A stretch of 64,000 nucleotides of DNA from NCBI GenBank assembly GCA_015680685.1, contig MNCI01003446.1:55691-119690 (forward strand). Direction: 5' to 3'. The notes under the pieces were generated by a model. The model was not told where the DNA came from and searched no databases. It worked only from the letters and a program-made list of their open reading frames with translations. How positions within the stretch are numbered: position 1 is the first letter of the stretch; every line of letters begins with the position of its first letter. The translations under genes and the position numbers were made by a program. Source of the DNA: Gnetum montanum (Eukaryota; Plantae; Gnetophyta). Below, piece after piece: positions 4,826 through 46,976 of the stretch.

Positions 4826-4826
4826 A

Positions 4827-6388: not shown

Positions 6389-9300
6389 CTATGATGTAGG
6401 AGAAGGAGAAGGATCATTAGCAACATCATCTTCAACAACATCATCATCATTACATGAGGCCTATAAGCAACAAAAATATAAAAAATTAGTAATCATCATA
6501 ACCAAGACATAACTATGAAACCCTAAAAACTAAATAATAAAAAATATAAAAATATAACACAAAAGCTTAGAATATTTTTTTACACAAACCTCTAGGGATT
6601 CTGGAGTTATGTCTTTAGGTGCAAATATTTAGAGACCAACCTCTAACAAGTGAAGAATTTGTTCTTCACTCATGTTTACCCAATCAATGTCTCCTAGATC
6701 CACTCCTATAAGGATCTTTTCCATTATTATGCTTGTTCACTTAGATGGAGCATGAGAGAAATTAGTAGTGCTAGTTTTCCTAGACACGAGCTGAGTAGGA
6801 GACTCAAGAGCCAAAATGGAGCTAGCAAACATGTTGTACTTATGTCTTAAATAAATAACTTGTACTTATGCTATGTCATAGTTGCATCATGTCATGATTT
6901 TATGTAATTTTCTTTCTCCAACTTGTAAAGCCTTTTGCAAACCTTTTGTTTTTTTGCCACACTCTAATCCCCATGCATAATAATTGTGCCATTCCTGGAA
7001 CTTTCAAGTTAGGAGCTTCATTTGCATGTCTTTCTCTACATTACTCCTAGTTAGAGCAACCTTACCTTGAATTTCACTCCAATAATAGGACTACTTAATT
7101 TCTTTAGTACACAAGGAATTCCTATTGGCCACACATACCTCTATGAATTCCTTACAATCTTCAAGGCTCTTGACCTTGTTGGTTAGCTTCTTGTTTTTCC
7201 TCCTCAAGGCCATAACCTCCTCCCATAGGAACTCATTAGAACATTGGACTTCAAAAAACATTTTTTCATAAGTAGCACATTTTTTGACCCCTTCATACAA
7301 CTTACATGGGACACTATCAACATTGGAGGATAAGGCTACGAACTCATCACATTCAAAGTCTCATGAGAAGTTCCATTTTATTTTGGAAACTACAAGAACA
7401 TAAAAAATACAAAAATATTTAAAAAGATTTTAAATAGCAAAATACTATAAACATAAAAACATGAAAAATAAAAAATATATAAAAATAAAAACATGTAAAA
7501 ACAAAAACACTTTAAAATTTTCATTACTAATATTAGAAGCCATATGTTGCAACCTATCCATCATTCCCTTCATGAACTCTAGTTTGTCTAGGGCCTTTGC
7601 CCAAGACTTGGCATGAAATATGGATGTAGATGCTTCTAAAGGAGGTTCACATCCTATAATGGCTATAATGGTTAGACACTAATTACAACAAGATAAACAT
7701 ATATATAAACTAACAAAAATAATGAAAAAATTAAAATTAAAACATGAAAAAATTATTAAAATTAAAACATACCAAAAAGATTATGAGCTAGGCCTATTAG
7801 AGGACTTCTCTCTAGAGGCAAATTATCTCAAATGAAATCTATAACATTTGGAGCCTCCTTGGTTACTCTTTCCTCTTCCTTCCTAGTTGCTATTTCCTTC
7901 TCTTCTTTACATTGTTGGTCCTCAACAGCAATAGCTTTTGCAGCTAGTTCCTACACTTTCTCTACAATAAAAAAAATAGTCATAAAACATAAAACAAGTT
8001 AGCAAACACTTAACAAAAAAATAAAAACTAAAACTAAAAAAATATATTATGTACCTCCAACATCCTAATTCACCATGTTGGCTTGATGGACAATTTCTTG
8101 AATGCTTGCTTAGTAGGAGCTTGAATATTGTCTTCAACACATGGCCTCTTTATCTTCTTTCCAACAACACCATCCACTTCTCTACATAACCTTTTTTCCC
8201 TCTTAACATTGGCACTTGTGGCATAAGGCTCAATCATTGTGCTATTAGGGGAACATCCATGCAAACCACTAAGATTCTTAGTGGTAATAGATACTAATTT
8301 CTCAACATCATCCACTCGTAGATCTTGGTAACATATAACATGAGTGATATGATTAGCCCAAGGCCTAGAGAGTTGGCAAGGGTCATGTGCAAGCCATTAT
8401 CCATATCTGTTGATCACCAAGAACTCCATAAACCTCTTAAGATATGCAAGAAAGAATGTAAAATGCACATGATGAATATGATTGAGGTTGTTATGAAGCT
8501 TTTTGATTTCATCCCTTAAACTAGTGACCAAGTGGGTAGCCTAATCAAACATAATACCATTAGTCAGTACCTTTCTCATAGTCCAAGCCTAATAAACTCC
8601 TATATTTTTCTTTTGTGATAGTAATAAGTCTGATTGGCTTCCTCAACAATACAATTATTCAAGGTTAATACTACATTGGGAGAAGAATTGAACCAAGCCT
8701 CCAGCTCCTCTCTATATTCTACATTCTTCCCTACTCTAGTGACCATCTAAGCACTACTAGAGGATGTGCCAAAGATATTGCTAAACATGGATGTAGTAAT
8801 GTTCAATGTAATAGGGTAACCATTAATATCAGTGATGAATTTGGCAACATCCTCATCAAAGAAGTAAAGCACATTTAATATCTCAGTAGGTGACATCATG
8901 ATACTAGGAAACGTAAACAAATCATGCAAACTTACATAAGTGATCCTTTGTTGGATGTTCATAGAAACCTTTTCTGCTACACATTCTTGTGCTAATTCTA
9001 CTTCACCTCACTTGAGCTGAAGTTTCTTTTTAGAACACACTGAAATAGTCACATCAATTATAGACTTACACACACAATTTGTTACATAACATAGTGAACA
9101 TGTTCTCGTAAAAACTTAAAAAGATAATAAACAACATAAATAACAAAAATGTAAAAATAAAAATATATTAAATAATAGCAATAATAATATATATTAAAAT
9201 TATTAACCATGCTAAAAAATTTTAACTTACCAGGCTTAGATAAGGTTAGAACCTTAGGATGAGCTAATGTGTGTGCTCCCAAATCTGGGTGAGTCCACCA

Positions 9301-10040
9301 CATATGTACATGTTTGGTTGCTATGCTTAACTGGTACAAGATGGAATACCATTTTTGGTATCTATCAAACTCAAATTCCAGAGATGAAGCACTTCCATTC
9401 TTATGATTTTACCTTTCTTGAACACTTCCAAAGATGTTTGAGCCACAACTAAGTGTTGGTCATTCCTCATCAATCCCCCAAGATGTACCCTATGCTTGCA
9501 AAAAAATGAATACCAAAATAGTTAGGACTAAAATAAAAACCTTAAAACCAAAAACAACAAAGGTGATAGATTAAAGTCAAACTTATGGTGTTAGTAGGTA
9601 GATAGTTCCTAGAGGATTTTGAAAGAGTGTGTTTACCTTGTGACCTATCATCACAATGTTACCAAAATTGTATTGCAAGTACTCAGGCATCTTCCAAATC
9701 TATGATAACCTATGAACTCTCCATCATAAAAGGTAGTATTCCTCTCTATCTCTCTCTCTCTAGGTGTCAAGATCATAAATCATGAAATTCAAGATGTAGT
9801 TGGAAGATCTAGACATAAGAGTTTCTATGATTATACTAGCAATATCCACCACCAAGTGTGATCATACAATCAGGTTGAATTGTTGGTTTAAGTATAGCAA
9901 AACTCTTGGGCACCAGGTCTAAACCACATCAAAGTATGATTGTTAATGCTTACATCAAGGTTCAAACTCTTTTGTGTGGCTATCCTAGTGTAAGATACGA
10001 TACCAACTAGCTCCACCACCACTAAAATAGATTTTACCAA
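6389..10040 (-). pseudogene. Third, degenerate copy of the spliced accessory gene (FCP1-like + Transposase_32/PMD-like + coiled coil) in older sequence D
   Basis: Manual translation gives ILVVELVGIVSY (~10000), MWFRPGAQEF..QFNLIV.SHL (~9900), TLFQNPLGTIY (~9610), LHDLFTF..FITDINGYPITLNITTSMFSNIFG (8747-8962), SWAKALDKLEFMKG (~7590) and VDLGDIDWVNMSEEQILHLLEVGL (~6670). All are collinear with the B and C genes and separated by AT-rich introns. Confidence 0.85.
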
Positions 10041-10435
10041 GGACTTGTACTTAGCCAAAATTCATAACTATTAAGGACATGAAAAACCATATAACTGTTA
10101 TAACAAAAAGTAACAAAGTTTAAGCCAAAATTAGTAGTAGCATGAAAACATTGACATCAAATAAAAAACATAAAAATTAATTAAGTGCACTAACATAACT
10201 ACATTTACAATATAACCAAAATTTGGTTTTTATTGACATGGAAAACCCAATTTAACATTTCCATGATCAATTAGCTTATAGATCCTTGGAACAAACAATC
10301 TTGCAAATTGTTGACAAACAAAAAAATAAAATTTGACAAAACTAAAGGGCAAAAATGAAAATGATAGGGCCTAATTGATGTAATTTTTTATGATTTTACG
10401 GTCAAGAAATTCACACAAGTGTGGACATTGGAGAT

Positions 10436-11959
10436 TGAAACACCACAAAATTTTGGCCTAGCACTTTCAAACAAAATTCAAGCTAAGTCATGCTATTGCC
10501 CAACATGAGTATAGCATGACCAAACATGAGAGTCTCCAAAATGACATGAAATGACATTCAATGGAGCAAGCAAAGTCTCCCTGGGGCCCACAGGCGACTG
10601 CACCAGCTTTCGGCATCCAGAATCAAAATTTTTGGGCTCAAAGTGCTTAGTTTTGGCTAAGTATACTTTGGTTGCATTTTCTTACGCTACACAGCATAAG
10701 GCCTAGCGTCACCAACTTTTGGAGCCTCGGAACTGAGCCAAAACAGGCCAAAATTGAGCACAAGGACCCCCCATGACCTCCACTAATGGTTGCCCCAGGT
10801 TTCCAGCCCTTAGGATCCTGATTTTGGGCTCAAAAATACACTATTTTCACTGCTCACACCTAGCTCACGCCTAGGTCAGGCCTAGGTCAAGCCTAGGTCA
10901 CGCTAGAACGTGAGCCCAGTGTGACCAAAAAAATGGGTTTAAATAAGCATTCCCAGGCACAATGTCAGCATCAACTCAACTCCCAAGGGTAGGCAGCCGT
11001 TATACTTGAAGGACAAGCCTTGAAAATCAAGATTCGATGCAAAAATGGCCTAGCGTGAGCCTAGCATGAGCTTCCAAAAGTGGGCTAAAACATTTCAAAC
11101 ACATGCTGAAAACATGCCAGGACAAGATCAAGTCAAATCGACATCCTACAACAGCCGATCCAAGAGACTATGAAGTTCCAAGTGAGCCAGAGTCAAATTT
11201 TAATTGCAAATTCATTGTAAATTTTCATTCTAAGCTTTACCATAGGTGAGCTTGTTAAGCCCTTACGCTGCTTCCATGGGCATAAACTAGCTTGCATTGT
11301 AAGATGCAGTGCACCTGGTCTAGAACGTAGTTTTCCCATGTACACCTATCATGCAATCCATTATTCTCTCATCTCGCCATCATCAATCCTGTTCATTCCT
11401 ACTCCCAAGCCTAGATGAATGCATAAATACCCTGTGCAAAGACATAAACAGGGTTTGCAAAAATTTGGCAAAAGAAACTAGCAATCCTAATCTTGGACAC
11501 ACGTGATTCCCAGCACCTGCAAACACTACACATCGAAGCTTAACATCTGACTTGCAATCCAGATTCGCAACTACGTTTTGAACGGTGCACATTTTGTCAA
11601 TTAATACAATACATTTTCATTTTTTCCTTCTGTTGTGCTGTTCTTATTCATTGTTTGTATTATTTTGTTTTATCGCAAGTTTCTACAATACATTCTCTGC
11701 ACATTTACATGATGTATTTCATGTTTACGTTTCATTTTTATTACGTTCTTCATTTTACATTTCATAACAATAACCCCAACGTAGGCCATAGCATATGCTC
11801 AGGGAAGTCCTTGGTTGATTTGCGTGTAGACCATCCAAGGCACTCTACCTTCATCTTTCCAGCCTTCCCTCACGCGAAGGTAGGGTCATCTATGTTTCTC
11901 CGGAGATATTTCGACGTACGTTTTTTTCCAGCCTTACGTCGATGATTTCGAACAGTATA
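10436..11959 (+). repeat. 5' LTR of element B
   Basis: Direct repeat of 28164-29647; starts with TG, ends in TA (CA>TA), followed by the PBS. Confidence 0.92.
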
Positions 11960-11964
11960 GAAAT

Positions 11965-11982
11965 TGCTGCTAGAAGGAGGGC
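11965..11982 (+). promoter_or_regulatory. PBS of element B (tRNA-Asn type)
   Basis: TGCTGCTAGAAGGAGGGC; 2 mismatches to the complement of the plant tRNA-Asn(GUU) 3' end, TGGCGCTAGAAGGAGGGC. Confidence 0.8.
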
Positions 11983-12074
11983 CGCTTACCGTTTGATAAA
12001 ACCTTAGTTACCCCATAGTTCAAAATGTTGCACTAATTGAGCACTTTAACCAAAACCCCCATTAATGTTGGTCC

Positions 12075-12355
12075 TGTTCATGCTAGGCTTGCTCATGTTG
12101 CAAATTTACTCACGTTGAGACCAGTTACTCATGCTGAGCTTACTCATGCTGACACCAGTTACTCACACTGAGCTTGCTCATGCTGACACCAGATACTCAC
12201 ACTAAGCTTGCTCACGTTGACATCAGTTACTCATGTTGAGCTTACTCACGCTGACACCAGTTACTCACGTTGAGCTTGCTCATGAAAACACTAGTTACTC
12301 ACGCTAAGCTTGCTCACGCTGACACCAATTACTCATGCTAAGCTTGCTCACACTA
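12075..12355 (+). repeat. ~34-bp tandem repeat in the 5' UTR of B
   Basis: About 7-8 copies of GAGCTTGCTCATGCTGACACCAGTTACTCACACT, built from CTCACGCT-like halves. Confidence 0.9.
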
Positions 12356-12414
12356 TGACTAGTCCACATAAGTTAGGCTTTACATAAATTCAGCTAGTCA
12401 AATCGATTACACAC

Positions 12415-15400
12415 ATGGAAGCATCCCAAATCAACGCAACATTGCCCATTTCTGACCTCAATGCTGAAATCTCAAATCCTGTGACTGCAACCAAATCTAT
12501 AGTCACCGTTGGAGAGATGAACCTTCAAGGGCCAACCTGTCAGTCACTTACGTTACAAGGCAAAGATCCTGCCTATACAATTCTCACCTCATAACAATAC
12601 AACTTCATTTGTGTAAAGATCCAAGCCAACCTACCTACTGATTGCGCAGAAATAGAAGCAAAATGACATTTTGAGTTCGTCTATAAGGGGGACCATAATT
12701 TTATCCCCTCAGCATACAATGTGATTCCCTTATCTAAATCTCATCAAGAACTTATATCCCACCTCCTCATGGTAAGGAGTCAAACCTTGCAGCAATCTGC
12801 TGCGGAACCCCAAAACAAAGATGAAGAAGATAATTTCGCGGCTCAGTCCGAACACTGAGATTCGTACCATACTCTCAGTCCGCATACTTATACGAACCCA
12901 TTATTTCACCCTTTCACAGGAGAGACCATGTCACTTCATATAGTTAAAAGCACTCAAGCACATGTGCCCCAACAGGAAGCACCTACTCTCATTCCCACTG
13001 TCCCTATGACCGATACTCAATTCAATGTACCCATCCCCACTATTCCTTCGGCCACCACATTATCCCCTCTCCTACAAGTACAACCCCAACAACCCTCCTC
13101 TCTAACTAATGTAAGAGTGACTTTCCCACCCCAAGTAATTGGGATGCCCTCTGTGATACCCGCTTCCACATCTACACACTTCATCCCATGAGTGCAGGTT
13201 CATACCACACCCTTAGCTCCTCCAGTACAACATCAAGTACAAAGTCTCCCTTCACAACCCATAGTTGGACAATGGCCCGTCCCATTTTTCCAGTCACAAC
13301 AATCTGTTCCACAACCCCCAATTGGCCGATGGTCCATCCCTGTCACTCAACAACAATGACCTATACCTTATGGTATGCTGCCCTGAGTGGGACCCTCTGT
13401 AAATGTTTCACAAGTGCAACCTTAGACCACTCAACTTTCTTCCTTTCTATCCACTATACAGTAGTCTAACTTGTACGACACTCAAACTAGCCAACCTACT
13501 GCTCTACCAAGTGCCCAAGAATGGGCTGAATCCAAAAAGATGATGCAAGAGCTCACTGATGAGGTAAAACACCTCAAAACTGCTAACAACGAAGAGCTTA
13601 AAGTATTAGACTTTTACCAAGATGATCCTATTAGCTCTTTGGTGCCACCATTAACCCTGCCCAAAGGAGTTTCTTTTCCTCAACTAACCAAATACAATGG
13701 GGAAGGAGATCCCAACGCCCATCTGGTCACATTTAGACTAGAATGTTTATTGCTTCAGGCCTGGCCCCACACAATCTTGTGTGTGTTTGTCATTTCCCTC
13801 ACTGGATGAGCTTTAGACTAGTACTGAGCCTTGCCTCGTAACTCCATATCCTCTTTGGAGGATCTCTTACACCAGTTCATTACCAGGTTTAAATACAAGC
13901 TAAAACCTAAAGTGACCTTGGACAGTCTCATATAAGTAAAGCAAGCACCGCTTGAACTTGTACAAAAATTTATCCAAAAATGGAGTGCCACACTCAATGA
14001 ACTTCATGAGCCAACCCTAGAAACATACCTTCTTATGATTCTTAAGGGAGCCGTGAATGATTTTGTCAAATCAAAATTGTACTATCTAAATGCACGCACC
14101 CTAAGCCAAACTTTTGTACAGATCAAGAACATAGAAGAGGCAGCCCAAAGTAGCCATGACCCTGCTTACTCAACCTTCAAAAATAAACACACTAAAAAGG
14201 ATAAAGAAAAGGCCAAAGCAATAGTAGCAATAGTAGCAAAGACTCAACCTACTAACATGGGACAACAAGGTAGACCACCTACTACTCCCATTAACTATGA
14301 GAGAATCGCTCCTGCACATACACCTGAATCATCTACCATGCAAGCTACTAACACAGGTCATGCACATACGTTTGAGAGGAAAGACCCTGCTTAGTACACA
14401 CTACTCCCCATGAAGCCTTCCCAGTTGTTAAATCAACTTTTGAAGGTTGGGACCATTAAACACAAACAACTGTCTCCAACAGCAGCCCAGAGACATGACC
14501 GATTCTGTGAATTGGCCAAAAACCCAAGCTTGGCAACTCCAAATGAGCCTCCTATTCCAAGAGGCTTTAGACTAGATAGATTTTGCGAGTACCACCAATA
14601 GAATGGGCATGGTACTGCTTATTGTTTCACCCTAAAACAAGACATACAATGTATGATTGATAGGGGTGAAATAACATTTAACGATGCCAACCCTATTAAA
14701 CCGAAGAATCAATCTATGGACATATACAAAGATCCCCTTAATACTAAGGAAGCTCCTTACGTTATTAACATGATCCATGTCAGAAATTAGCAAGGTATGC
14801 CCAAAAAAACTTTCATGATTCGTGTTCCTCCTAAAACTTCAACATCATCCCCACAATCTTCGTATCCCACATATAATCTGCCTACACTGACAAAACCATT
14901 TGTTATTCATGTACCCCCTGCCAATGCAATCACAAATGTACAATCACCTACCCAGCTCACTCCCTTTGTGGTTCGAGTGCCACCTACGGTTGCAACCATG
15001 GAGGTACAACTGCAAAACCAACCAACTCCCTTTGTAATCAAGGTGCCCAAACACCTTGATCTTCAACCTCCTATTCCTCAACCACAAACCAAATCGACCC
15101 CATTCGTCATTATGGTGCCTAAACAGCTTGATGCACAACCACATCCAAATGTTCAACCACAACCTCGACCAACTCCATTCGTAATCCGAGTCCCAAAACA
15201 ACCTGATGTTCAAGCTCCAACAGTTCCCCCACGACCTTTGCAAGAACGCCTCACCAACAAACTCACTAGAGAATGGTTGAAAAAAGAACGTTGAAATCTT
15301 GAATTGGGGCCACCAAAACCCACTCCCTTAAATGTTGTACCTATGGCTCTGGCAACTGATGAGCCAAGCATGAGTCATGAAAGCAAAAAATCAGAGATGC

Positions 15401-16512
15401 CAGATATGTCGAACCCAACCATCACACTAGACCACATGAAGACCATTCCACAAGAGATACAATTGTTGGGTCCAATGGACCAAGTCTCAACTAGCAAGAC
15501 TATTCCAAATAGCCAAGACTTGGCCAATGCCCTAACTCAGGTCACACAAGCGCTTAAACAGAAAAATACATCTTTGAGCTTGTATGATCTAATGATGACT
15601 TCTCAAGTTCAATGTGAACCCTTAGTATGCATGTTAACATCGATCCCGGTCAGTGAACACTTGCTTGCAAATGAACCTTCCATTCATGTGGTAATGTCTC
15701 CATATCAAGGATCAAGAGCCACATCACTAAGCTTTAATGTGAATAATATAAAAATAGATGAAAAAATAGGAAAAGTCACCACTGCACCCATGTTCATAAC
15801 TATACAAGTAAATCAATTTAAGATACACAAGATGCATGTAGATGACAGAGTGGCCACGAACGTAGTACCATACCCCGTCATCGAACAGTTAGGGCTAACT
15901 GAACAAATCAAACCAACTTCCACGACATTCCTGAAATCGTTCAGTAGATCACGCGTAGTTGTCAAAGGAACACTAACTTTGGACTTCATAACAAGGGACC
16001 AGTTCCCCACGTTAGCTAAATTTGTGGTCGTAGATGAGATGCCTGGATTTAACTTGATATTGGGATGACCATGGCTAGCCCAATTAAAAGCGGTATCCTC
16101 ATCCATCCACCAAGAGATTCACTTACCCTATGAAGGTGGTGAAATCATTATACACGGTGATGCGGCTACATTCAACACCTCGACACACGTAGGCACAAAC
16201 CAAGGCTCAAAGTTCGAAATTGATGAGACTAAACAAGATGACATTACTCTTGAGCTTAAATAAAATGCCACACTCACTGAAAACCAAAGTGATAACCAAT
16301 CCCCAAACTGTGATCCCCTGGAAGATATAGAAACATTACAAAATGTGGAAACATTAGGACATGCTGACATAGGAGTTATTCCGCCAGACGTCTCATGGTT
16401 TGAATTGCCATTTAACATAATTAGCGAAGGAGATGCTGAATATACAATTACACCGACATGCCCAACACACCATGTCAATTTGCAAAAATTAAAGAAGCTA
16501 CTCAACCATTAA
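12415..16512 (+). pseudogene. gag: gag-protease of element B (disrupted)
   Basis: KYNGEGDPNAHL gag core, CEYHQ.NGHGT..C knuckle, PFVIRVP repeats, protease VDD(R)VATN...FNLILG.PWL; terminal TAA at 16510-16512. Confidence 0.9.
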
Positions 16513-16756
16513 ACTACAATCGTCTGAAATGACGTTAAACTACAATCTTCCGAAATGACGTTAAACTACAATTGTCTGAAATGACGTTAAACTACCACAT
16601 GTCCACAATAACATAAAACTAGCCACAATCAGGAATGGTCGATTTCAAAAAAAAACCTACTGAAACAATTTAAATTTCTCGTGTTTTCTTATGGCCTGAA
16701 ATGGCCTTAAACTAGAATGTTGTTGCACGCATGGCCTAAAATGGCCTTAAACTAGA
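16509..16756 (+). repeat. Hairpin+TAAACT motif cluster after the gag-PR stop (B)
   Basis: CGTC-tgaaat-GACG-TTAAACT x3 (degenerate) and GGCC-tgaaat/taaaat-GGCC-TTAAACT x2. Confidence 0.85.
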
Positions 16757-17159
16757 ACAAGTTTCGTTTTTGTTTCTTTAAAATTACATTCTTGTTTGCA
16801 TGCATATTTGCATCCTTGCTCTACAAATTATTATTCCCCTTACATTTCTTCCACACTGTTACCATTTTATTTACATTCACACTTATATTTATAAACAACT
16901 AAAACAACAAAAACAAATTACAAAATTGAATCACAAAATTAAAAAAAAAAATCATTCGTGTTTACACTTGTGTCTACCCAAAGTTTGGACAAAAATTTAG
17001 AAAAAAAACTTGAACAACATAAAACACCAAAAAAATGTGTAAATGTATAAATATATCAAATGTTAACATGGTATCATACATTTTTTTTCATACAATCTAC
17101 AAAGAAAAGACAACAAACTAACAAAGAAATGACAAGGTTGACAGGACCAACAAGTCAGA

Positions 17160-20100
17160 TCATGCACTAGTGTTAGGAGGAGGTTGGTCCCCAAAATCCT
17201 CCATGTCATCAGCCCCTATCCCACTAGGGCTAGCCTCATCAGCACCACACCCTTATCACGAAGAGAAAACAAAACAACAAAATGAGCAGACGCACAAAAA
17301 GAAAAAAAAAGAACAGGTAAAAGAGAGCAAAGACACTAGAGAGGAATGATGACTAAAAGTAATAAAATAATGCAATAAAATACTCATGGATGAAGAAGAC
17401 CTGAAATTAGCTTCTAAGCACCATAAAATCTCTTCTTCGGGCACACAAGCCCAATCTTTCTCGAGTCCGAGGTCGATGTTGGCCAAGGTCTTACCCTTGT
17501 CCATGGGAGACCAGGAGGGACGCTCAAGAGAAAACACACTTGTTGAAACCTCCCCAAAGGTAGTGGTAATGGATCTCTCAGGAGACCCCTCCACTTTTGT
17601 ATATTCAACGAACTTCTCATAAGAAGAGCATAAACCTAACCCCTCCACGAACATCTCCAACCGGCGACGTTCCACTGATTCCTCTTTTAACTATTTTTTA
17701 TATTGGTGCTTATGATCTTTCTAATCTTGGCCCCATTTATGTACTTTGGATGCAAAGGATTTCCAGCCATGGCACTTCCTATTCAATAGATCCATCTGGG
17801 CCCTTTGTTCGGCCAAATCTTGAATCGCCTACACCTTGTTATTCAAGCATGCCCAATAACGTACATAAATGATCTCGAATGAACGCCATGTACTATCATT
17901 TTCCAACCTAGCAGAGGAAAAATCATAACGGGCTTGCAAATCATTTCTCTCCTTTGTCATCTTCGCCAGATTTTCCTTCAATGATTGAATTTCAAGCCAT
18001 AGTTGTCCAATTAAGCGCCTGTAAGTCCAGAGAGATTTGGCATTTGGGACAACACAACCCGAAATCGAATCATAAATCTCTCTTAGGATCTGCTCAATAT
18101 CTCTTGGCAATTCTGGGAGACTATTAATATGAGTAGCCTCAGAAGGATTCCATTGAAGCTTTGCACCTACAAGTACAAACATTGCACACATAAGCCAACC
18201 AGAAATCTCCAACAGAAGCAAAAACACAGTGAACTTAGGCACTTAGTATAAAGTACACACCTAATTCAGGATGAGCCTATCTCAAACAAGCTACAACATC
18301 ATTGACAATGCCAATGACAAAGTCTACTTTATTAGGCACCTCAGGCCACAGCTTCAATGGATCAGTGGATCTTGGATTTATATGAGAAGGCATCTTAACT
18401 GGGGCCTCAAACTCCGACCCACATGCCTAAGAAGCATATGCTTCAGGTACCTTAGCATCTATATCTAATGTCAAGCAAAGCCATGATAGTTAAAATAATG
18501 CATGAAACTAGGAAGATACAAAATGCAGATCAAACTAACAAGACTTACCAAGCGGCCCTCTACTGGTCAGCTCAGGCGGATCACCAAGGTGTAGAGACCC
18601 ATCGAAGAAACCATCAAAAACATCTTTCTTCTCAATTGAGTGTTTAAGGGCATCTAAAGCCTCAACAAGTGTCATGTCCATGGTGCTCATTTCATCCTCT
18701 TCTCGTAAGATGGAAATGGCCTCAACTGCTTCTTCCCTCGTATCCTCCTCTTCGTTACACCCAATGGTGACTGTTTTAGGTTCATCCATTGGAGCTAATT
18801 TCTCCCTCTCTCTCTCGGGGGTATCCTCTGTTAACACCAGTAAACCTAAAGTTAGCATGATGTAATAGGCATACATATCTAAGTAAATAAGTAAATTCCA
18901 AAAAAGTAAAAAAAAAATTGAGCAAAAATAATAAAATACTTACCCACTCTTGGCAAGGTGAATCGAATCTTCTTAGCTCTCAGCGACCTCGCCTCTATGG
19001 TAGGATCCCTCAGATGCTCACCTCTTTTCACCTTAGCCTTGGCCTTTTCAACAGTCTCTTAGATTAAGCGTCTAGCCCTCCTAACACTAGTGTGCAGCTG
19101 AGGTTGATCTAACCCCAGGCTGTCACATGAATGGCGGGAATGATTAGCTGCGCCTCCTGTTGTGACAGAGACTAACCCCTTGATGCCTTCAGGTGGATCT
19201 TGGGATCTAGTGGTGTTAAATAGGTGACAAATCCAAGGGTGAGACAACTATGAACGGTCCCTTAACACATAATGGGTATCCCCATAGACCACTAAGAACT
19301 CAGCAAACCTACGAAAATAGCCCACAAAAAAGGCAAATGTGAAGTGTGACCTAGCATCAACATTGGAACATAGCTTGCTGATCTCTCCACGGAGACCCAA
19401 TACAAGGAAATGCGCCCATTCATAATGCATACCAGTCTCTAAGACTGAACACATAACATGCACAAACTCCACCCCGAGACTTCTTGCTTGGGAAAGAGAC
19501 TTAGGAAATGCTCGAGCTCTAAAGAGCAGGTACATAAAGTTTGCCTTCATCGAACGAGTATCATCTTGCATGGTGAAGCCTTTAGGACCTCGCGGTACAC
19601 CTAGCCAGTCTTCAAGTTCCTTACCACATGTCTCTCTTTAGTTCCCCTATCAACCGCCACCTTAACACCATTCACTGGCACATCAAAAAGATCGGAAAAG
19701 AATTCAGCGGTGATGTGGAAGGACACCTTTACTCCTCGAACCCGTGTGGTAAAATGGGAGACGTCATTGTTAAAAGAGTCAACTATAGCAACCATTTCAG
19801 TAGTGGGAACGTTGGGAGTCAAGGTGGTAAATAGGTCCAGTAGGCCTACGCTAGTGAGATGGCTGATGATTTGTTCAGGTGCCTTCTTATGCAACCACTG
19901 TTGCGACTCCTCTGTTTCTACAAACTTCATACAAAGAGTAGCCTCAGTGCGCCCAGATATGACGGTAACCTCATCAAGAGGAACGACCACTATAGAAAAG
20001 ACATAGGTGACATTGAGCCAAAAGAAAAAATCAAATCAAAAACATGCTAAAATGAAAATAAATCCTGGAACACGATCATTTACCACTAGTAAATGGAGTA

Positions 20101-20888
20101 GGTACACTTGCTGCAAGGTCAATCATTTGAGGAAAAATAGGCCAATCAGGAGACCAATCCTCATGTAGCCAATCACGAACTCGACAACATTCCAAGGCCC
20201 TAGAGAACTACCTAGGATAATTGATAATAGCATCCTTGGTCTAGCCTAACACTGCAGAACGAAGTGTGGGGCCCATCATGAACGCTTCCAAGGCTCTGCC
20301 TACTATGGTAAGTTCGTTATCATCCTCATGCAATCCATGCTAAGCAAAATGGAGCCTGCAAAAGAAAGAACACTCATACGCGAACAATGATCATAACGCT
20401 AAGCAAGTCAACATTAATACACATATAAAAGAGCATACTTGTCTACTCGATATACTGTTCTAGGTGGGTTTTGAAACAGTGTGTGTGCACAGCAAGCTAG
20501 AAACAGTGTGCTACTACTATTATAATGGCTGCAAGATGGAAATCCCCACACACAAGTTAAAGAGCATGTAGATTTAGGACCTTCAAGAATGCCTCCCTTG
20601 ACCACATATAGCCCCTCTTCTATGTCAGCAATGAAAGCTAGCACACCCCGCGTTGAGCTAGGTAATATGGTCTCAACAATGTCACAAGTCAGCTACTCAT
20701 TCAAATGAGACCATATGACAACGCTGAAATTCTGTAGAATAAATGACAAAAAGGCACCAACATTTGAATGAAACCATATCACGTGTGCCCTGATCAGCAT
20801 GTCATAACTGGTCGTTTTCTGTTCCAAAGGGCCGAATCAAGATAGCACACCAACCAGTTCAACCACAAGGAGAGAAGGCTTAGGCCCC
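17160..20888 (-). pseudogene. Antisense spliced accessory gene of B (FCP1/NIF-like pseudo-phosphatase, Transposase_32/PMD-like domain, acidic region, coiled coil)
   Basis: GT-AG bounded exons 20888-20439, 20355-20084 and 19989-18944, plus further exons to ~17160. Homologous to 37851-41531. Start exon not identified. Confidence 0.85.
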
Positions 20889-23181
20889 CTACACCAAAAC
20901 AAAATCCCAGGTAAGTAAGTTAAAATTTGTAAACACACAAATGAAAGTAACCATTAATGAAACATGACTATATATCCCTTCATCAATCCGAAATCATTGA
21001 AATACAGTGGCAACAGATTTCGAATACAAAATCGAGACTTATTTTGAAAAATGCATTGTTCCCTTAGGAGATACATAGATGGAGTGCATGCTGACGAAAA
21101 AGTCTGGTCACCATTGGCCCTTATGTGTAGGGTACTGCTTATAACATGATCATAACATATGCATAATGGAGCTGGCCATGTTCAAAAAAAAGAATATATA
21201 TCAATAAGATGTAAACCTATTACATCTTATTACTAGTCCAGCACTAGTAGGAGCGTTCATTTTACATCTTATTACTGGTCCAGTGCTAATAGGAATGTTA
21301 GTTAATTTGTGTACATGTGCTAGCCCACTATATATAAATGACTATATCTCAAAATGCTACTCCACATGGTAGGGCCTTAAATGTGCTAATTTGTTCATCA
21401 TATTACTGATAACCTAATCATGTATCAGCTATCCATCACACGGTAAGGAGAATATGGAATGCCATATTTAGCTAAAAGTAATCCAGGGTAACAGCACCTC
21501 ATGAATTGAGACAATACCATCATACCAACTTGAGGCATGAGATGCTGATCCAAATTGCAAGATTGAAGATCAACAACAATATCACTGCACGCGTCGCCCA
21601 AATTAGAGGTCTAAGTCACGCTAATTTTGGTTCAATAGCCCACACTGCCAAGTAAGAGGCCTAACTCACCCTGGACAATCCAAACCGGAAAACTCACGCT
21701 GCAATAGAAACGAAGGCAACAACTCATACTCACGTTGCAAATGGTAGCTGACTCATGCTACAAATGGCAGCTAACTCACGCTGAGCATGTAACAGTCCAT
21801 CCAAAATCATGGATGTCAACACAATCACTCACTATATTGTAAACAGTTCATAGGACCAAATGCCAAACCTCGGATACTAGTTATGGGAAATCTATTAGCA
21901 CAAGCAGTGATTTGGTGTTTGAATACAAGACTTTGTATTTTAACCTTTGAGTGTCAGTTTATAGGATAACCCATAAACACCGATAAAATTTTAGCACAAG
22001 CGTTGGTTATTTGTAGTGAACCAACAAGGTTGATTTTGGCTAAAGGCACTATTCATGTTACTTATGCTGCCTAGGGCACGTTACTCACACTGCCCAGGGC
22101 AAGCAACTCACACTAGGGCAATTTGCACTGCCAAGGAAATTCACATGCATACCAGAGCATCCCTCACGATGACACTAGAACCCCTAAACCAGCCTCCAAT
22201 AACTCATGTTAAAGCCCGATTACTCAAACTAGCTGATTCTCAAAAGGTAACCCCAAATGCAATTTAAAACACAAATGCCCTGGAACATAGTGAAGGAATA
22301 TAGAAAACGTGATCATTGCTAGATAATTAAAATTTAAATCGCCCTCATACACTAAAATACGGTGGTTCCCATAACTCAAATACTGCCACTCGTTGGTGTT
22401 ATGCTGCGAAAAATTGAAAAGAAAAGAGGAAAGCAATAAACCTACATAGGGTTCCAACCCACGAAGAAACCCTTGGTTATAGAAGGCATTGAAGCAACTC
22501 CTTGCTCTCTTCCACAAACACTAAGCTTGCCTACCTCTTCCCCTTCCCTTGTTCCAGCTTTCCCTTGCCCTTCATCTTGCTCTATTACTCACGTTGTTTC
22601 TACTCTGTACTCATGTTGTCCTGCCCTGTTACTCATGCTGTCGGTCCCTCTTGCTCACGTTGCAAGTCTTCAAGTCGCTCACGCTGCTTAGAAGTCACGC
22701 TAAGTACATGTTTATAGTTGCTCATGCTAATGGAAAATCCTCCAACTCACACTGCCTTCTATTCCCAAGCATTCACGCTGCTCGTCACCTTCATCAACTC
22801 ATGTTGCATTGGTTACTCATGCTTGCATCTCACTTGGCCTCCCCTTTTTTTTCTTTACCCCAATTGTTTACACGTGGCGCGTTTTACCTCATTTATATCT
22901 TACTTATTTTATTCTATCCTTGTACTTTGAGGTAGCCATTTCTTTTATTTCTTGCATACATTTATTCATTCTCCCAAAGCAACTTAGATGTTTTAAATCC
23001 AAGAAATTTATGTGCATAAAGCTCAAATTACGTTTTGGCTTGGTACGGCCTTAAACTGCCATACTATGGCCCAGTATGGCCTAAAACTTCCATTACATAC
23101 CACAATCTTGTTAGACTAATCATGTGGAACTTAAACCTTCCTCATCAAGAAAATGTTGTTTAAATTGGTAGGAACAAGCAT

Positions 23182-26100
23182 ATGGACAGCAAGAACCTCT
23201 TTTCAACATTGTCTATCAATGGACCACATGGGGCCATTCAACGAGAAGTTGACCTAGAATCCATTGATCTAGACTCATCATCAATTTATGAAAATTTTGT
23301 GGCATCCACTCAAGGAACATCAGATTGCTTTGAGGATATGACTAAACCTTTGGACTTAGAAGTCGACAACATCACTGAGGATCCCCTCGTTGAAGTCCCC
23401 ATCACCATGTCTAGTGGCGAGCTTAAAACATTAAAATTAAGTACTTTACTAAATCTGCAAATTTCCAATGACATTACACGAGTGTTGAAGAATAATATAA
23501 AAACTTTCACTTGGTCGTATACTGATATGCTAGGATTGGACCCTTGCATCATCCAACATAACATCATCCTCGATGAAAAACTTATACCGGTAAAGCAAAA
23601 GGCACAAAAGGTTAGGCCTGAGGTAGCATTGGCAGTTCGTAATGAAATCACAACACTATATCAAGTTGGTTTTATTTGGGCTGTTGATTACACCTATTGG
23701 GTATCTAACATTGTTGTAGTCCCTAAGAAGAACGGCAACATTCGCATATGTATTGACTTCCATGACCTCAACGTAGCCACTATAAAAGACAACTTCCTGC
23801 TACCCAGCATCGATCAACTTATTGACTCAACCGCCAGGCACGCATTATTGTCCTTTATGTATGGATTCTCGGGATACAACCAAATTAGGATCAAACCAGA
23901 ACATCAACTCAAGATAACCTTCATGACACCTCGGGGCATGTTCTGTTGTACAATGATGCCATTTGATCTCAAAAACGTGGGTGCCACGTATCAATGGGAA
24001 ATGACATATATATTTAGCGATTATATGCTCAATTCACTCAATGATTATGTAAATGACATCGCATTCAAGTCCAAAATAACCAAACAGCACGCGAAGCACC
24101 TAGACTTGGTACTCAAATGCTATCTCAAATACAACCTTAAGAATAACCCAAAGCAATAAGTCTTTAGGGTTAAGATGAAAAAAATGCTTGGCTTCATAGT
24201 CTCCGAAATAGGTATACGAGTAGACCCTAATAAGGTCAAAGCAATAACTAATATGCAACCACCTAGGAACCTCACTAAATTACATGGTCTGCAAGGTAGA
24301 CTGCAATTCATCATGCGCTTTATTATGAAGCTAACTGATAAGTTGAAACCCATGCAACATTTACTATGAAAGAATGTCCATTTTCAATGGACTCAACTGT
24401 GCCAAGAGGCCTTTGAAAACATAAAAGTAGAGTTGGCTCAACTACCAACGATTCATCCCTCGCAAAGTGATATACCTTTTTACATCTACCTTGCCACGTC
24501 TGACTCATCGATTGCGTCCATGCTTTGCCAAAAATAAGAAGATGGAGCTGAGATCCCCATTTACTATTTAAGCCATGCCTGAACTACATACAAACAATGC
24601 TACAACGATGTGGAGAGATCGTGTCTTGTCCTAGTATTTTCCTTAAAGAAGTGGTGATACTATCTCTTTCGTAATCAATTCTATATCATTTGCAAAGATA
24701 ACGTGCTTCGAGCTATCACAAACAACATCTATGAGTCAAGTAGGATAAATAGATGGAAGGCAATGATTGTAGAGTTTGACCTATGCTATGTTGGTTAATC
24801 CTCCACTAAGGGTCAAGCAATAGCTAATCAATTGACTGCATCACTGATACAAGATTAAGTGACGATCAACCTTGAATTTCCTAATGAAGATATTAGTAGC
24901 ATAGACGTAGTGTCCAATAATTATGATGCAATCCTGTACTTTGATGGAGCATCCACCTCCAGAGGAGGAAGTGTTGCAACCATCATAACATATCCCTCGA
25001 AAGAAATTCTCCCTTTTTCCTATCGACTAAACTTCCCTAGCACCAACAATGTGGTAGAGTATGAAGGTCTTCTTAGAGGTATTATAGTGGCATTAACTTC
25101 AGGGATCACACGTCTTGTAGTTCGCGGTGATTCACAGTTAGTAATCAATCAAGTCACTGAAATCTACGCATGCAAAGCTCTGCATTTGCAACCATACTAT
25201 GACCTGACAAAACACTTACTAAAACAACTAATCAATGTAGACATGCAACACATTCCTCGAAACAAAAATACTATTGCTGACACACTTGCCACACTAGCCT
25301 TGAACATGACACCTGACATGTTCCATGCATTGCCTAGTTCTATAACAAATTGTGCCAAACCTATGATCAACGCACTTGATGAAATACCCATAGTGTCTGT
25401 TAGCACTACACGAGTAATAGAGTGGTACGATGACATAAAAGAGTACCTTCTACGAGGCGAACCAACATACCATTTGACAAGCACTCAAAAATATGTGATG
25501 CAAAAATGCTCTAGACAATATGCATTAATAGGGGATACCTTGTGTCGCAAGTCCTATGAAGGCATCTTGTTGATGTGCGTCAGTAGCATTGATGACAAAA
25601 CGATAGTGGAGTAGGTTCACGAAGGACTGTATGGAGGGCATATAGCACCCAAAGCAATGGCAACAAAAATTAGATGTTTGGGCTATTACTAGCTACACAT
25701 GGAGTACAATTTCTTCTCCAGGGTCAGGAAATGTAACATTTTCCAAAGGCATGGTAACCCAATACATGTACCACCTAATGAGTTGCATACTACACAAATC
25801 ACATGGCCATTCAAAAAATGGGGATTAGACATCATTGGGTCAATAACACCACCATCTTCAACAAGACATAGTTTCATCATCACTGTGACCAAATACTTTA
25901 CCAAATGGGTAGAAGCCATTCCCCTTAGGAAAACCACGTCCAAACACGTTTGCAACTTCATATTAGAAAACATCGTAACCCGCTTTAGTATCCCAATGAC
26001 CATAGTCATCGATAATGGGCCACAATATAGTAGCACGGATACTAAAAGCTTCTATGAATGCTTAGGTATTAAACACTCATTTTCATTATCCTACTACCCA

Positions 26101-26661
26101 TAGAGCAATGGTCAAGTAGAGTCTATGAATAAAATGATCATCATGGTGCTCAAGAAAATGCTGAATCAAAGTAAGAGATGATAGCACGAGTAGTTAATCT
26201 ATGCACTATGGACATACCGAACAATGCATCGAACGTCCACAGGTAAGACACCATATAGCCTAGTATACAGATCTGAAGTTGTGTTACCTTTGGAGTTATA
26301 GGTGTCCTCGCTGCGGATAACGCTCTCTAGCCTCCTTGATGAAAGCCAAAACAATGAACTACACATCACTGACCTTGACTCGGTGAAGGAAGAAAGAGTA
26401 TGAATGCTTGACCAAATCAAATGGTACCAAAGATAGTAACGACAATGTCATCAACATAATCCACATAAGTAGCTGATCAAGGAAGGTGACCTAGTTCTCA
26501 AGGCAGTCCGCAAACACTCAGAAAAATTTTCAGCCAACTAGGAAGGACCTTACTTAGTCACTAAAGCATATGATAATGGGGCATTCAAGCTTGTCGACAT
26601 GGACAAAAATGAATTGGCCAATCCTTCAAACCACATGTACCTGAAACCATTCTATGTCTAA
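23182..26661 (+). pseudogene. pol: pol of element B: RT, RNase H, additional (archaeal-type) RNase H, integrase with GPY motif
   Basis: FTWSYTDMLGLDP, WVSNIVVVPKKNG.IRICIDF, FSGYNQI, YVND; aRH LYFDGAS..TNNVVEYEGL..GDSQLVINQV; integrase WPFKKWGLDIIG, DNGPQ, EGPY. Multiple stops. Confidence 0.95.
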
Positions 26662-26678
26662 TGATCTTAAGGTACGTC

Positions 26679-26990
26679 ATGGTCCTAGCATCACGACCTA
26701 AAACTGATACCACAGAATAGTCCTAGAGCTATGACTTAAAAACTAGTACCACAAAACGTCCTGGCATCATGATAGTAAATCGACACCACAAAGATCTATC
26801 CTACATGACACTAAACTGTTACACTCATTCACCAGAGTCCACTAAGACTATAAAATAGCTAGCCTCTTCATAGTCCACCATGACTATAAACTAGCATGGC
26901 ACCATCTGGTACGATGCTAAATTGGCAACATCCAATGGGTTATGACGTAAAACTAATCCACGAGAGTCTGCCAAGACTATAAACTAGCAA
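26679..26990 (+). repeat. Hairpin+TAAACT motif array in the 3' UTR of B
   Basis: About 9 degenerate units, e.g. TAGTC-caccat-GACTA-TAAACT and AGTC-tgccaa-GACT-ATAAACT. Confidence 0.8.
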
Positions 26991-28150
26991 CTTCTTCACT
27001 AGCCTACTAATCTGTTGCTGAAATTGAATGGCATGTCATCATCAACCTAATCAATGAATTCATCACATGGCTCTGACAACATTGCTGCTTCTCAATTTTG
27101 TTTGCCTACGATTGCACGTGGTATTTCCATCCCATCAATTTCATCCATGTTTAAAGTGTTAAGCTAACTCATTCACTTGTGGTTTTCTTGTCTTCTTGGA
27201 GTTATGTTTGTAGGATGACACCCAAAGGTGTTCGTACATGAATGCACTTCATCACGACAACAAGGTGACACATTGTTCCTAATGCATGTAACCAGGTTAA
27301 TCAAACCATTCACAAGTACATTTACAATTCCTCAAACATCCCTTATTCCCTAACATGTTCTCCCTACCCATTTTCCAGATACATCCCTGTCACCCCTAAA
27401 CTTGAACAACACTATTGCACACTGTAACTCTCCAAGTAGTTGTGCAACACAGCATAGCCCATGATACAATTACAAGCACACAAGCACAAGTACAAAAAAC
27501 ATGCTCTTGCCAAAAACAAAAAAAAACAAAAAAAATAGAAGGCTAAAATAATAATAAAAATAAAAATGAAAATCAAAGAGCAAAATCCATCATAAGACCA
27601 TTGGCACTTCCCATACAAGCCCCAGGTGGGAAGGTACTTGTCTTGGAAGAAAACACTCATGTCTCAAACAATCACGTTGCATCCCACTACGTGGCTTTGG
27701 CTATTGGACAACGGGTTCTCTTTGACACTCAATAAGAATCTTGTTTCTCCAAAGAACGTACCACCTCACCGCGTGGCTCTGGTTGTGACAACGAGTTCTC
27801 TTAAACATGATACAGGAGTCTCATTCCTCCAAAGGACGCACATCCCATGCCTTGGTCCCAAGTCTACTAGATATTGGCTATTGAAAAGGACCAACATGAT
27901 GTGATTCACACAAGAGCATTCCTCTTCCCATAGTTAAACAAAATCATCCCTTCATCAATCCCCGATCTCGCAGTAACAAACCTTTCTCCCTATACACCTC
28001 AAAAACCTCATTTCCCAATTCCATGTACTTCTGAACATGGTGCGATGAAATATGGCAAAGTGCCAAAGAACAATGCTTGATACCTAGTTTCTTGTGGTGT
28101 TTTGTACTTCTTTGTCAACACCTCTTGGGTAGAGTCCTCCAGACATCAAC

Positions 28151-28159
28151 AAAGAGGGG
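28151..28159 (+). promoter_or_regulatory. Polypurine tract of B
   Basis: AAAGAGGGG-CCAA immediately before the 3' LTR TG; identical in C. Confidence 0.85.
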
Positions 28160-28163
28160 CCAA

Positions 28164-29647
28164 TGAAACACCACAAAAATTCTAGCAACACTTCCAAACA
28201 CTTCAGAGCCTCTGAAGTGGTTTCAAACAGCCCACCATGGAGCAAGGAAGGTCCCCATGGGGCCCACAGATCATGACAGCAAGTCTCGGTGTCAAGAATC
28301 ATCAGTTTCAAGGTCAAAAAGTGCAATTTTGACTAACTACATTTTTCAAACGTTGCACAGCGTAAGGCTCAACGTCACCAACTTTTGGAGCCCCGAAACT
28401 AAGTCAAAATAGGTTAAAATTGAGTACAAGGACCCCCCATGACCTCCACTAATGGTTACCCCAAGTTCCCAACCCTCAGAATCCTAATTTTGAGCTTGAA
28501 AATACACTATTTTTACTACTCACGCCTAGCTCACACCAAGGTCAAGCCTAGGTCACGCTGGAATGTGAGCCCAGCGTGACCAAATGAAAATGGGTTTAAA
28601 AAAGTAGTCTCAGGTACAATGTTAGCATCAACTCAACTCCCAAGGGCAGGCAGCAGTTATACTTGAAGGAAAAGCCTCGAAAATCAAGATTCGGTGCAAA
28701 AATGAACCATTCTGCCTATCTCATGCCCAGTTCACACTGAGGTCACTCTAATAGCGTGAGCCTAGCGTGAGCTACCAAAAGTGGCCCAAAACATTTCAGA
28801 CATACACCGAAAACACGCCAAGACAAGATCAACTCAAATCAACATCTTGCAGTAGCCGATCCAAAATACTATGAAGTTCCAAGTGAGCTGGAGTCAAATT
28901 TTAATTGCAAATTCATTGTAAGCTTCACCATGTGTGAGCTTGTCAAGCCCTTACACTGCTTCCATGGGCGTAAAATAGCTTGTGTTGTAAGATGCAGTGC
29001 ACCTAGTCTAGAACGTAGTTTTCCCACGTACACTTGTCATGCGATCCGTTATTATCTCATCTCACCGTCATTGATCCTGTTCATTCCTACTCCCAAGCCT
29101 AGATGAATGCATAAATACCCTGTGCAAAGACATAAACAAGGTTGGAAAAAATTTGGCAAAATAAACCAGCAATCCTGAGCCCAGACGCACGTGATTCCCA
29201 GCACCTACAAACACTACACATCAGAGCTTAACGTCTGACTTGCAATCCAGATTCGCAACTACATTTTGACCGATGCACGTTTTGTTAATTAATACAATAC
29301 AATTTCATTTTTTCCTTCCGTTGTGCTGTTCTTGTTCGTTATCTGTATTATTCTATTTTATCATGGGTTTCTGCAATACATTCTCTACACGTTTACAAGA
29401 TGTATTTCACGTTTACATTTCATTTTTATTACACTCTTCATTTTACATTTCGTAATGATAACCCCAGCGTAGGCCATAGCGTATGCTCAGGGAAGTCCTT
29501 GGTTAATCTGCGTGTAGACCATCCAAGGCACTCTACCTTCATCTTTCTAGCTTACCCTCACACGAAGGTAGGGTCATCTATGTCTCTCCGAAGATCTTTT
29601 GACGTACATTTTCTTCCAGCCTTACGCTAATGATTTCAGACAGTACA
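28164..29647 (+). repeat. 3' LTR of element B
   Basis: TG...CA direct repeat of 10436-11959. Confidence 0.93.
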
Positions 29648-32691: not shown

Positions 32692-33957
32692 TTGGCCCCT
32701 CTTTGTTGACGCTTGGAGGAATCGACCTGAGAGGCATCGACAAAGAAGTACAAAACACCACAAGCAACTTAGTGGCATTGTCCTTTGACATCTGGCCAGA
32801 TGTCCTCGCATCGTGTTCAAAAGTACTTGGGATTGGGAAATGAAGTTTTGAGATGATGTCTAGGGGATTGGGAATTAACCAAGGGATTGTGCTAGTGTGG
32901 GAGAGGAGTGTTCATCTTTGTGCAAACAATTCATGTTGTTCCTTGTCGATGGCCAATGTTTGGTAGACTTGGAACCAAGGTATGAGGTGTGCGTCCTTTA
33001 GAGGAACAAGACTCTTGTATCAGTTTTAAGAGAACTTGTTGTCACAACCAAAGCCACATGATGAGATGATGTGTTCTTTGGAGAAATAAGACCCTTGTAG
33101 AGTGTCTAAGGGAACCCATTATCTAACAGCCAAAGCCACGCAGTCTAAAATGAAACATGATGGTGTGAGACACGAACGGTTCTTTCCAAGACCACTGTCT
33201 TCCCGCCTGGGGCTTGAATGGGAAGTGCCAAGGGCTTGCGGTTCATTTTTCTCGTTGCTCTTTTTTCTTTTCTATTCCTTTTCATTTTTTTGTTCTCTTT
33301 TTTTCATTTTTTTGGAAAGAGTGTTCTTTCAATTTTACACTCATGCTCATGTGTTGTGTTGTGTGTGGCAATTGCTTGAGAGTGTCAAACCGTGAAACTG
33401 TATGCTCAAAGTTTTGGGTGCACTGGGTGTATCTAGGAGCTATGACTGGGTAGGAAGGGGAACAAGATTGTTGGGGAAATGGAGAATGTATTGGGAACTG
33501 GGAATGTACTTTTGAACAGATTGATTAACCTGGTTGCGTGCGTCAGAAACAATGTGGTACCTTGTCGCCGTGATGAAGTGTATCCATGTACGAGCACCAC
33601 TGGGTGTCATCCTGCAAACACAACTCCAAGAAGACAAGAAAACCACAAGTAATTGAGTTAGTGAACACTTTAGACATGAATGTGACTGATGAAACAAAGG
33701 CACCAGATGAGATTTCAAGCACTAAATATGAATGGTAGCAATGTCTTTAGGATCAATTGATGATGAGTGAGGCAGCGGCTCTGATGAGGTTTGAATGCAG
33801 CTACTGATCGGGAGGCTAGAAATGAAGCTGCCAGTTTATAGTCATAGCAGACTGTCATGGGTTAGTTTTATGTCATAACCTGTTGGACGTTGCCAGTTTA
33901 GTGTCGTAACAGATGGTGCCTTGCTAATTTATAGTCTTGGTGGACTATGGAGAGGCA

Positions 33958-46953: not shown

Positions 46954-46971
46954 GCCCTCCTTCTAGCGTCA
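46954..46971 (-). promoter_or_regulatory. PBS of element C (tRNA-Asn type)
   Basis: Minus strand reads TGACGCTAGAAGGAGGGC, 5 nt from the LTR end. Confidence 0.85.
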
Positions 46972-46976
46972 TTTTG

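Follow-up and report, generated by a model that had tools for sequence, protein, structure and literature searches.

The stretch analysed here, called the window, is 64,000 nucleotides (nt) of Gnetum montanum contig MNCI01003446.1 (assembly GCA_015680685.1, positions 55,691 to 119,690). It contains two related long terminal repeat (LTR) retrotransposons, B and C, and in both of them an antisense gene lies in the gap between the gag-protease region and pol, on the strand opposite gag and pol. The two were recognised in a self-comparison of the 64-kilobase (kb) window as related long elements in opposite orientation. Element B, a full-length Tat-type Ty3/gypsy element, occupies 10436..29647 (+), with LTRs at 10436-11958 and 28164-29647. 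Element C, of the same Tat-type Ty3/gypsy family, occupies 31195..48474 (-) and has its own LTR pair and a 5-base-pair (bp) target-site duplication. The Ty3/gypsy assignment rests on paired LTRs with TG...CA ends, target-site duplication, a polypurine tract, and the order gag, protease, reverse transcriptase (RT), RNase H (RH), with integrase (INT) last. The gag-protease region of B (12400..16512, +; the start is approximate) ends in a tail and stop common to both elements, the stop in C being at 42216-42214. The pol of B is a single frame (23182..26661, +) in which Pfam recognises RT (179-338), RT_RNaseH (402-531), RVT_3 (587-704) and rve (875-972); it thus has the extra archaeal-type RNase H (aRH) beside the native one that distinguishes Tat elements. 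The pol start codon is kept in B (23182) and C (36471), as seen in the windows 23170-23184 (+) and 36471-36485 (-), and an acceptor-like AG is kept before it, at a spacing of 10 nt in one and 11 nt in the other. The distance from gag-protease to pol is 6.67 kb in B and 5.7 kb in C. A decayed primer-site-like stretch, which may resemble plant tRNA-Asn, follows the 5' LTR in both; the primer site expected of Ogre elements is of the tRNA-Arg type.

LTR identity is 85.4% inside B (Kimura two-parameter distance, K2P, 0.166) and 91.0% inside C (K2P 0.098), and the LTRs of B and C are just 63% identical to each other. Their 5-bp target-site duplications differ, that of C being perfect and that of B matching at 4 of 5 bases. 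Because each element has its own LTR pair, the LTRs have diverged this far and the target sites are different, B and C represent two separate retrotransposition events. Segmental duplication was considered as their source and was ruled out by the LTR comparison and the target sites. Both elements are themselves dead. The 120 best RT matches, 45-56% identical, belonged to Ty3/gypsy proteins of plants, and RVT_3 is present in many of them. A quick RT tree of 41 rows (38 hand-picked from these matches and three from the window) placed B and C with two Cryptomeria RTs (support 89), on a long branch and away from legume and mallow elements. A metagenome scan with RT returned 6 distant loci (27-47%), none of which matched pieces of the accessory gene.

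The gene comprises 8 exons and 7 introns, with ~3,257 coding bases or about 1,085 codons. On the minus strand of B, exon 0 (22442..22575) holds the ATG, encodes a start rich in lysine, has its GT donor in phase 2 and is followed by a 1553-nt intron. Exon 1 (20439..20888, 450 nt) encodes a NIF/FCP1-like domain without the catalytic aspartates, the family match having come from the C copy. Exon 2 (20084..20355, 272 nt) is preceded by an 83-nt intron, which is skipped exactly in three RNA reads from a relative. Exon 3 (18944..19989, 1046 nt, one frameshift) encodes a conserved domain of no recognised family, exon 4 (18549..18827) an acidic, weakly conserved segment, and exon 5 (18261..18464) a further short one. 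Exon 6 (17388..18166; donor AT) is the best conserved, with 59% amino acid identity, and probably encodes long helices. Exon 7 (17160..17251) contains the stop and has a one-base gap relative to C. The whole C copy lies at 37373..41534 (+), with exons 0-3 at 37373-37503, 37851-38300 (450 nt), 38374-38645 (272 nt) and 38737-39782 (1046 nt), and exons 4-7 at 39907-40176, 40264-40467, 40558-41338 and 41430-41534. Exon 1 has an AG directly before it and no start codon, which sits instead in exon 0. Alignment of the two exons 0 (B 22575-22442, C 37373-37503) scored 100, compared with a maximum of 47 in 300 shuffles, and the phase-2 donor is at the equivalent place in both copies.

A large part of this structure had been described in the original prediction, made by a model from the letters of the window. 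The equal lengths of what it took to be the first three exons (450, 272 and 1046 nt in both copies) were reproduced. So was the separate 1-bp deletion in each 1046-nt exon, seen as single-base gaps in an alignment of 1047 columns, near the start in C and ~370 nt in for B. Its count of at least seven exons is raised to eight by the upstream exon with the ATG. The phases of introns 1-6 (2, 1, 1, 1, 1, 0) agree between B and C, as it had stated. The claim of GT-AG junctions holds for all 12 acceptors and for 10 of the 12 donors of these introns, but the donors of C intron 4 and B intron 6 are AT, so that over all seven introns of both copies GT is found in 12 of 14. The last acceptor of B is placed 9 nt further on than that of C. 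Introns 1-6 are short (73-136 nt) and rich in T (47-51%, compared with 27-29% in exons), and all 12 of them contain an in-frame stop. That the introns cannot be aligned is accurate for five of the six, whose interiors do not rise above composition shuffles (p at least 0.085), but not for intron 4 (z 3.1). The proposed comparison of exon and intron identity gave a divided answer. Raw gapped identity overlaps (introns 55-67%, exons 57-64%), being no lower in introns because these are T-rich, whereas the exons stand out against shuffles, with z from 6.8 to 39.

The conclusion that the protein was under selection is upheld by the pattern of substitution. Differences between B and C at codon positions 1, 2 and 3 amount to 0.37, 0.28 and 0.59 over 1,021 codon pairs (p = 4e-47). 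The two products share 49% of their amino acids, with a proportion of nonsynonymous differences (pN) of 0.31 and a saturated proportion of synonymous differences (pS) of 0.77. The corresponding values for pol are 0.24, 0.14 and 0.48, with 68% amino acid identity. Under the same frame rule, the controls were flat: 0.25, 0.24 and 0.21 in the 3' untranslated region (p = 0.53) and 0.49, 0.47 and 0.49 in the LTR (p = 0.90). The mirror frame on the sense strand of the element shows a shadow of the bias, yet contains more stops (7 versus 2, 18 versus 8 and 23 versus 4 in exons 1, 3 and 6). The gene has 15 stops in B and 9 in C, 1 of them common, among ~1,040 codon pairs, and pol has 9 and 8 among ~830. 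The density of stops is about equal to that in pol, which means that each copy inserted with an intact gene, whose decay then kept pace with that of the element. Its persistence through retrotransposition, also part of the prediction, follows from the separate LTR pairs and target-site duplications of B and C together with the saturation of silent sites. We are in next to no doubt that this was a real gene, selected as a protein until the copies inserted.

An old, AT-rich third copy, D, was located by exon-peptide matches at 6390..10050 (-). It is almost without CpG, and in the aligned blocks it is 31-33% identical in amino acids to B and C. The third-position bias is kept (p = 1e-15). Six introns with phases equal to those of B and C can be placed in it, and the protein aligns on both sides of introns 1 and 5 and after intron 2, while introns 3, 4 and 6 were placed by eye in poorly conserved stretches. 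Donors are GT in 5 of 6 cases and acceptors AG in 3 of 6, the remainder being AT or AA. Insertions interrupt D on both sides: B inserted just upstream of its exon 1, and downstream it is bounded by another gypsy element (9-6150, -; probable 5' LTR near 4670-6150), whose RT is ~36% identical to those of B and C and which we take from its motifs to be Athila-like. A candidate exon 0 for D at 30650-30850 (-) scored no better than background; that interval, between B and C, consists of an open stretch followed by T-rich sequence. Copy D shows that the exon-intron structure is old, but it is no proof of a retrotransposon having carried D.

RNA reads were aligned using 2-26% of each run, and most of the aligned reads were less than 90% alike and hence came from related copies. 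The proposed check with spliced reads succeeded at one intron. In run X15 a single joint on B was covered by three reads with three starts, in which 88 bases are skipped and 5 others lie between, a net 83 that is the length of intron 1; the other introns had no junction reads. At the other end of the gene, 55 reads of a C-like relative in run X13 carry untemplated poly(A) at 41648 (+), which is ~115 nt beyond the stop and on the same strand as the gene, and the bin with this site has a depth of 44-48 in runs X12 and X13. Exon 0 is the deepest bin in three oligo-dT runs. Read peaks at 33226-33751 and 18833-19019 were dismissed as poly(A/T) artefacts.

The only part of the product that resembles a known family is exon 1. 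The C copy matches NIF (PF03031) in Pfam with E 0.004 and 17.2 bits, below the curated cut-off of 21.8, and exon 1 of B gave no Pfam NIF match. In Atlas, 30 of 30 matches to exon 1 were NIF (score 0.92, 196 of 256 features). The catalytic motif of FCP1-type phosphatases is DxDx(T/V). With the register set by the start of the Pfam match (protein position 7 at profile position 3) and this consensus, the corresponding place reads ELVG in B, C and D. Since ELVG stands where DxDx(T/V) is expected in all three copies, the domain is probably not catalytic. A structure model of exon 1 (predicted local distance difference test, pLDDT, 39.0) had no Foldseek match at E 0.001, with Tim50, Fcp1 and Scp1 among the top rows; the best Z in another fold search was 3.3, and a PDB sequence search with an exon-1 profile returned weak phage sheath matches alone (E 0.04-0.05). 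For exon 3, none of 586 candidate homologs was real, and the two matches among 1.84 billion representatives were both bacterial-type repeat proteins aligned through their repeats; its structure model is poor (pLDDT 32.5). The decayed pieces of exons 3 and 6 matched nothing in Pfam, Transposase_28, PMD and Athila ORF1 domains included, and it is no more than an impression of ours that exon 3 resembles PMD/Transposase_32 domains. Exon 6, probably helical, gave leads below 0.9 only in Atlas, and none of 164 pattern matches from a metagenome scan was confirmed. Exons 4, 5 and 7 are acidic and variable. Our best guess from the sequence is that the product would act in the nucleus as a regulator, binding phospho-peptides without cleaving them. 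Transposon silencing in Arabidopsis pairs PMD proteins with a phosphatase (PMC7156037), which for this gene is an analogy and not evidence.

Antisense extra open reading frames (ORFs) are known in Tat/Retand elements, among them maize Grande gene23, rice RIRE2, Silene Retand and the TRP28 ORFs (PMC7264820, PMC11963269). Like the gene described here, they are antisense to gag-pol, conserved across family copies and of unknown function, and for gene23 a promoter of its own and a product in the nucleus are described (PMC7264820). They differ in lying between pol and the 3' LTR, whereas in B as in C it is the gap from gag-protease to pol that holds the gene. They are also described as ORFs, 'intron' being unmentioned in the main text of PMC11963269, and here there are 7 introns and a NIF-like domain. 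The PMD and PMD-coiled-coil extra ORFs of Tat III-V, including the gymnosperm lineage III, resemble the gene in clade, in antisense orientation (III and V) and in the succession of a conserved domain in the middle and helices in the C-terminal part. They are found at the 3' or 5' end, while our gene is placed between gag-protease and pol and has introns, a NIF-like domain and no PMD match (PMC4408406). With Ogre, B and C share gag-protease separate from RT-RH-aRH-INT (two ORFs, aRH between RH and INT) and the 5-bp target-site duplication, but in Ogre the gap consists of a sense intron that is short, with a mean of 274 bp (PMC6317226), instead of 5.7-6.7 kb with a gene inside and a conserved pol ATG, and the RTs of B and C group with Cryptomeria elements and not with the legume or mallow ones. 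The gymnosperm Tat clusters J and K with dual RNase H, alike in their RT-RH-aRH-INT order and non-angiosperm lineage (PMC10508981, PMC13468544), are the likely home of B and C; no extra gene is described in the available text of PMC10508981, and 'antisense', 'intron' and 'eORF' are unmentioned in that of PMC13468544. The fungal brtn of Botrytis Boty is also an extra antisense gene in a Ty3/gypsy element, downstream of pol (as cited in PMC8365987 and PMC7264820). An orchid Gypsy element has captured an AlkB domain, likewise enzyme-like and kept over replication rounds, which retains its catalytic residues (PMC9289625). Compared with the FCP1/SCP-type (NIF, PF03031) phosphatases of the haloacid dehalogenase superfamily, exon 1 is alike by the weak Pfam match and the Atlas features and differs by ELVG at the catalytic motif. 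The literature searched, which included few subscription papers and no supplements (the eORF lists in additional files 1, 4 and 5 of PMC6317226 may bear on this), yielded no plant element in which gag-protease and pol are separated by an antisense gene with several introns, and no retrotransposon with a NIF domain. Antisense accessory ORFs downstream of pol in Tat were already known; what the papers searched did not show is the cargo and its position between gag-protease and pol. One review among PMC7264820, PMC11963269 and PMC4408406 asks for a search for antisense and spliced transcripts.

The explanation that we consider probable is that B and C belong to a Tat-type family with an eight-exon antisense gene in the gag-protease/pol gap, the introns of which are shielded by its orientation and the product of which is likely a nuclear regulator. 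Splice signals function only on the strand that carries them, a logic also used in the Ty1 his3AI reporter. The introns of an antisense gene would be read backwards on the RNA that is reverse transcribed, would not be removed, and would be copied back into DNA. That antisense orientation is what shields them, as originally proposed, fits this logic and the strand geometry, and we hold it to be very probable, but sense introns can also ride on unspliced genomic RNA, as in Ogre, and the proposal is to that extent an inference. Keeping seven efficient sense introns by packaging unspliced RNA would be hard. By analogy with maize Grande gene23, the mRNA may well start within the 600-900 nt between exon 0 and the start of pol, which is somewhat the better half of the possibilities. 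The gap of 6.7 kb in B and 5.7 kb in C splits gag-protease from pol, and for this reason we propose that pol would have an RNA to itself, spliced or started internally, and be translated from the conserved ATG, a proposal that we lean towards by a small degree. The conserved gag-protease tail and stop and the conserved pol ATG speak for a message of its own and against a polyprotein fused to gag-protease; foamy viruses likewise have a distinct pol mRNA with a separate ATG. Tentatively, the NIF-like domain might bind phosphorylated peptides, such as the tail of RNA polymerase II (Pol II), without cutting them, and together with the basic N-terminus and helical C-terminus might help the transcription of the element or its escape from silencing. 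A more elaborate scheme, speculative and rather unlikely to be right as a whole, would be a gymnosperm Tat with three transcripts: a gag-protease genomic RNA, a pol mRNA with its own ATG, and a seven-intron antisense gene for an FCP1-like pseudo-phosphatase that acts against silencing as a decoy for the phosphorylated Pol II tail or for host phosphatases of its C-terminal domain, the gene being of such age that it has diverged into families ~30% identical with unchanged phases.

Several results weigh against this explanation or parts of it. In X15, 146 of 175 aligned reads were less than 90% alike and represent relatives, not B itself. Runs X14, X16 and X17 gave no joints on B, so that a junction was obtained for one of seven introns in one of four runs, and the four runs aligned to C showed no joint at any intron of the gene and no sense-strand joint into pol. 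Depth in X15 does not fall at the exon-0 donor, with ~19 reads at 22409, inside intron 0, and 14 at 22444; reads that run on into the intron fit unspliced RNA, sense genomic RNA or a different donor. No promoter element common to B and C was found, and the regions upstream of exon 0 do not align. In the stranded runs X12 and X13, antisense-direction reads dominate over gag and pol too, and strand counts therefore fail to single out the internal promoter that had been predicted. Taken alone, exons 5 and 7 have no significant codon bias (p = 0.08 and 0.54). Within the window, the DNA expected to continue D yielded no pol, and the gene may therefore also exist outside such elements.

The stranded reads and the lack of a conserved promoter-like block between exon 0 and pol would be expected if the start of the antisense mRNA lay within the 3' LTR, or outside the element in the host DNA that flanks it, and the transcript crossed pol backwards with a long leader to exon 0, the double-stranded RNA perhaps regulating the element. 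LTR-driven antisense transcription has a precedent in human T-cell leukemia virus, but Grande gene23 has its own upstream promoter (PMC7264820), a leader of ~5.6 kb would be required in B, and in three oligo-dT runs the depth drops from 15-17 to ~1 just upstream of exon 0, a drop that poor alignability explains equally well. Such a start is in our judgement unlikely, though worth keeping in view. The same standing is given to a reading of the whole gap as an Ogre-type sense intron that fuses gag-protease to pol, with the antisense gene nested inside. The AG conserved before pol in B and C would be its acceptor, but the spacing of 10 versus 11 nt from this AG to the ATG would leave the fused frame unconserved unless one copy took an indel, no common donor was found near the protease end of the two elements, and the gap exceeds the Ogre mean of 274 bp by far (PMC6317226).

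Copy D, with no pol on its upstream side within the window, raises the possibility that the gene belongs to another mobile element, such as a DNA transposon, or to the host, where introns are commonplace, and entered an ancestral element in reverse orientation between gag and pol, serving itself or the host and not the retrotransposon. The short U-rich introns of the gene point to capture at the DNA level and not to an mRNA origin, and the PMD extra ORFs of Tat have relatives among MULE domains (PMC4408406). Such an origin would agree with the preferred explanation. A passenger role does not hold up: frames and splice sites lasted through many rounds of copying although silent sites are saturated (pS 0.77), and the surroundings of the cassette showed neither terminal repeats nor a target-site duplication that a nested element would leave. 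The insertions on both sides of D leave its carrier unreadable. We regard this alternative as improbable. Finally, the overlap of raw intron and exon identities could suggest that nothing more than kinship links B and C, with the exons as chance islands of alignment. This neutral reading is refuted by the codon bias of the exons, absent from the controls, by the stops of the mirror frame and by the phases of copy D, to which one exact junction is added, and its probability is negligible.

What plant retrotransposons gain from antisense accessory genes is still an open question, and the NIF-like domain described here would point to transcription control and offers a concrete biochemical test of accessory-gene function. 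The surveys consulted look upstream or downstream of gag-pol for uninterrupted ORFs, so that a gene with seven introns placed between gag-protease and pol would escape them or be split into pieces. The presence of a gene of several kb between gag-protease and pol also raises the question of how pol is made. With their short GT-AG introns and poly(A), such genes resemble ordinary host genes, and the number of genes counted in a large gymnosperm genome can be too high because of them.

Other features of the window were noted. Short repeats follow the gag-protease stop of B (16509..16757, +), and their motif recurs before pol (23047 and 23078, within 23047-23090) and after the pol stop (26680-26990). 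The motif occupies matching places in C, on the sense strand of the element in both, and is possibly an RNA signal. In B, one short repeat unit is present in the 5' leader (12090-12360), in intron 0 (21660-21790 and 22050-22110) and upstream of exon 0 (22580-22830); the repeats upstream of exon 0 in C are different. Beyond the elements, a host gene of glycosyltransferase family 17 (PF04724) lies at 52154-53272 (-). It is GC-rich, is not depleted in CpG and is 58-67% identical to all 120 matches listed, the named sources of which are angiosperms. The stretch 55700-62000 begins as very AT-rich low-complexity sequence and continues with dispersed repeats of 70-150 nt in both orientations.

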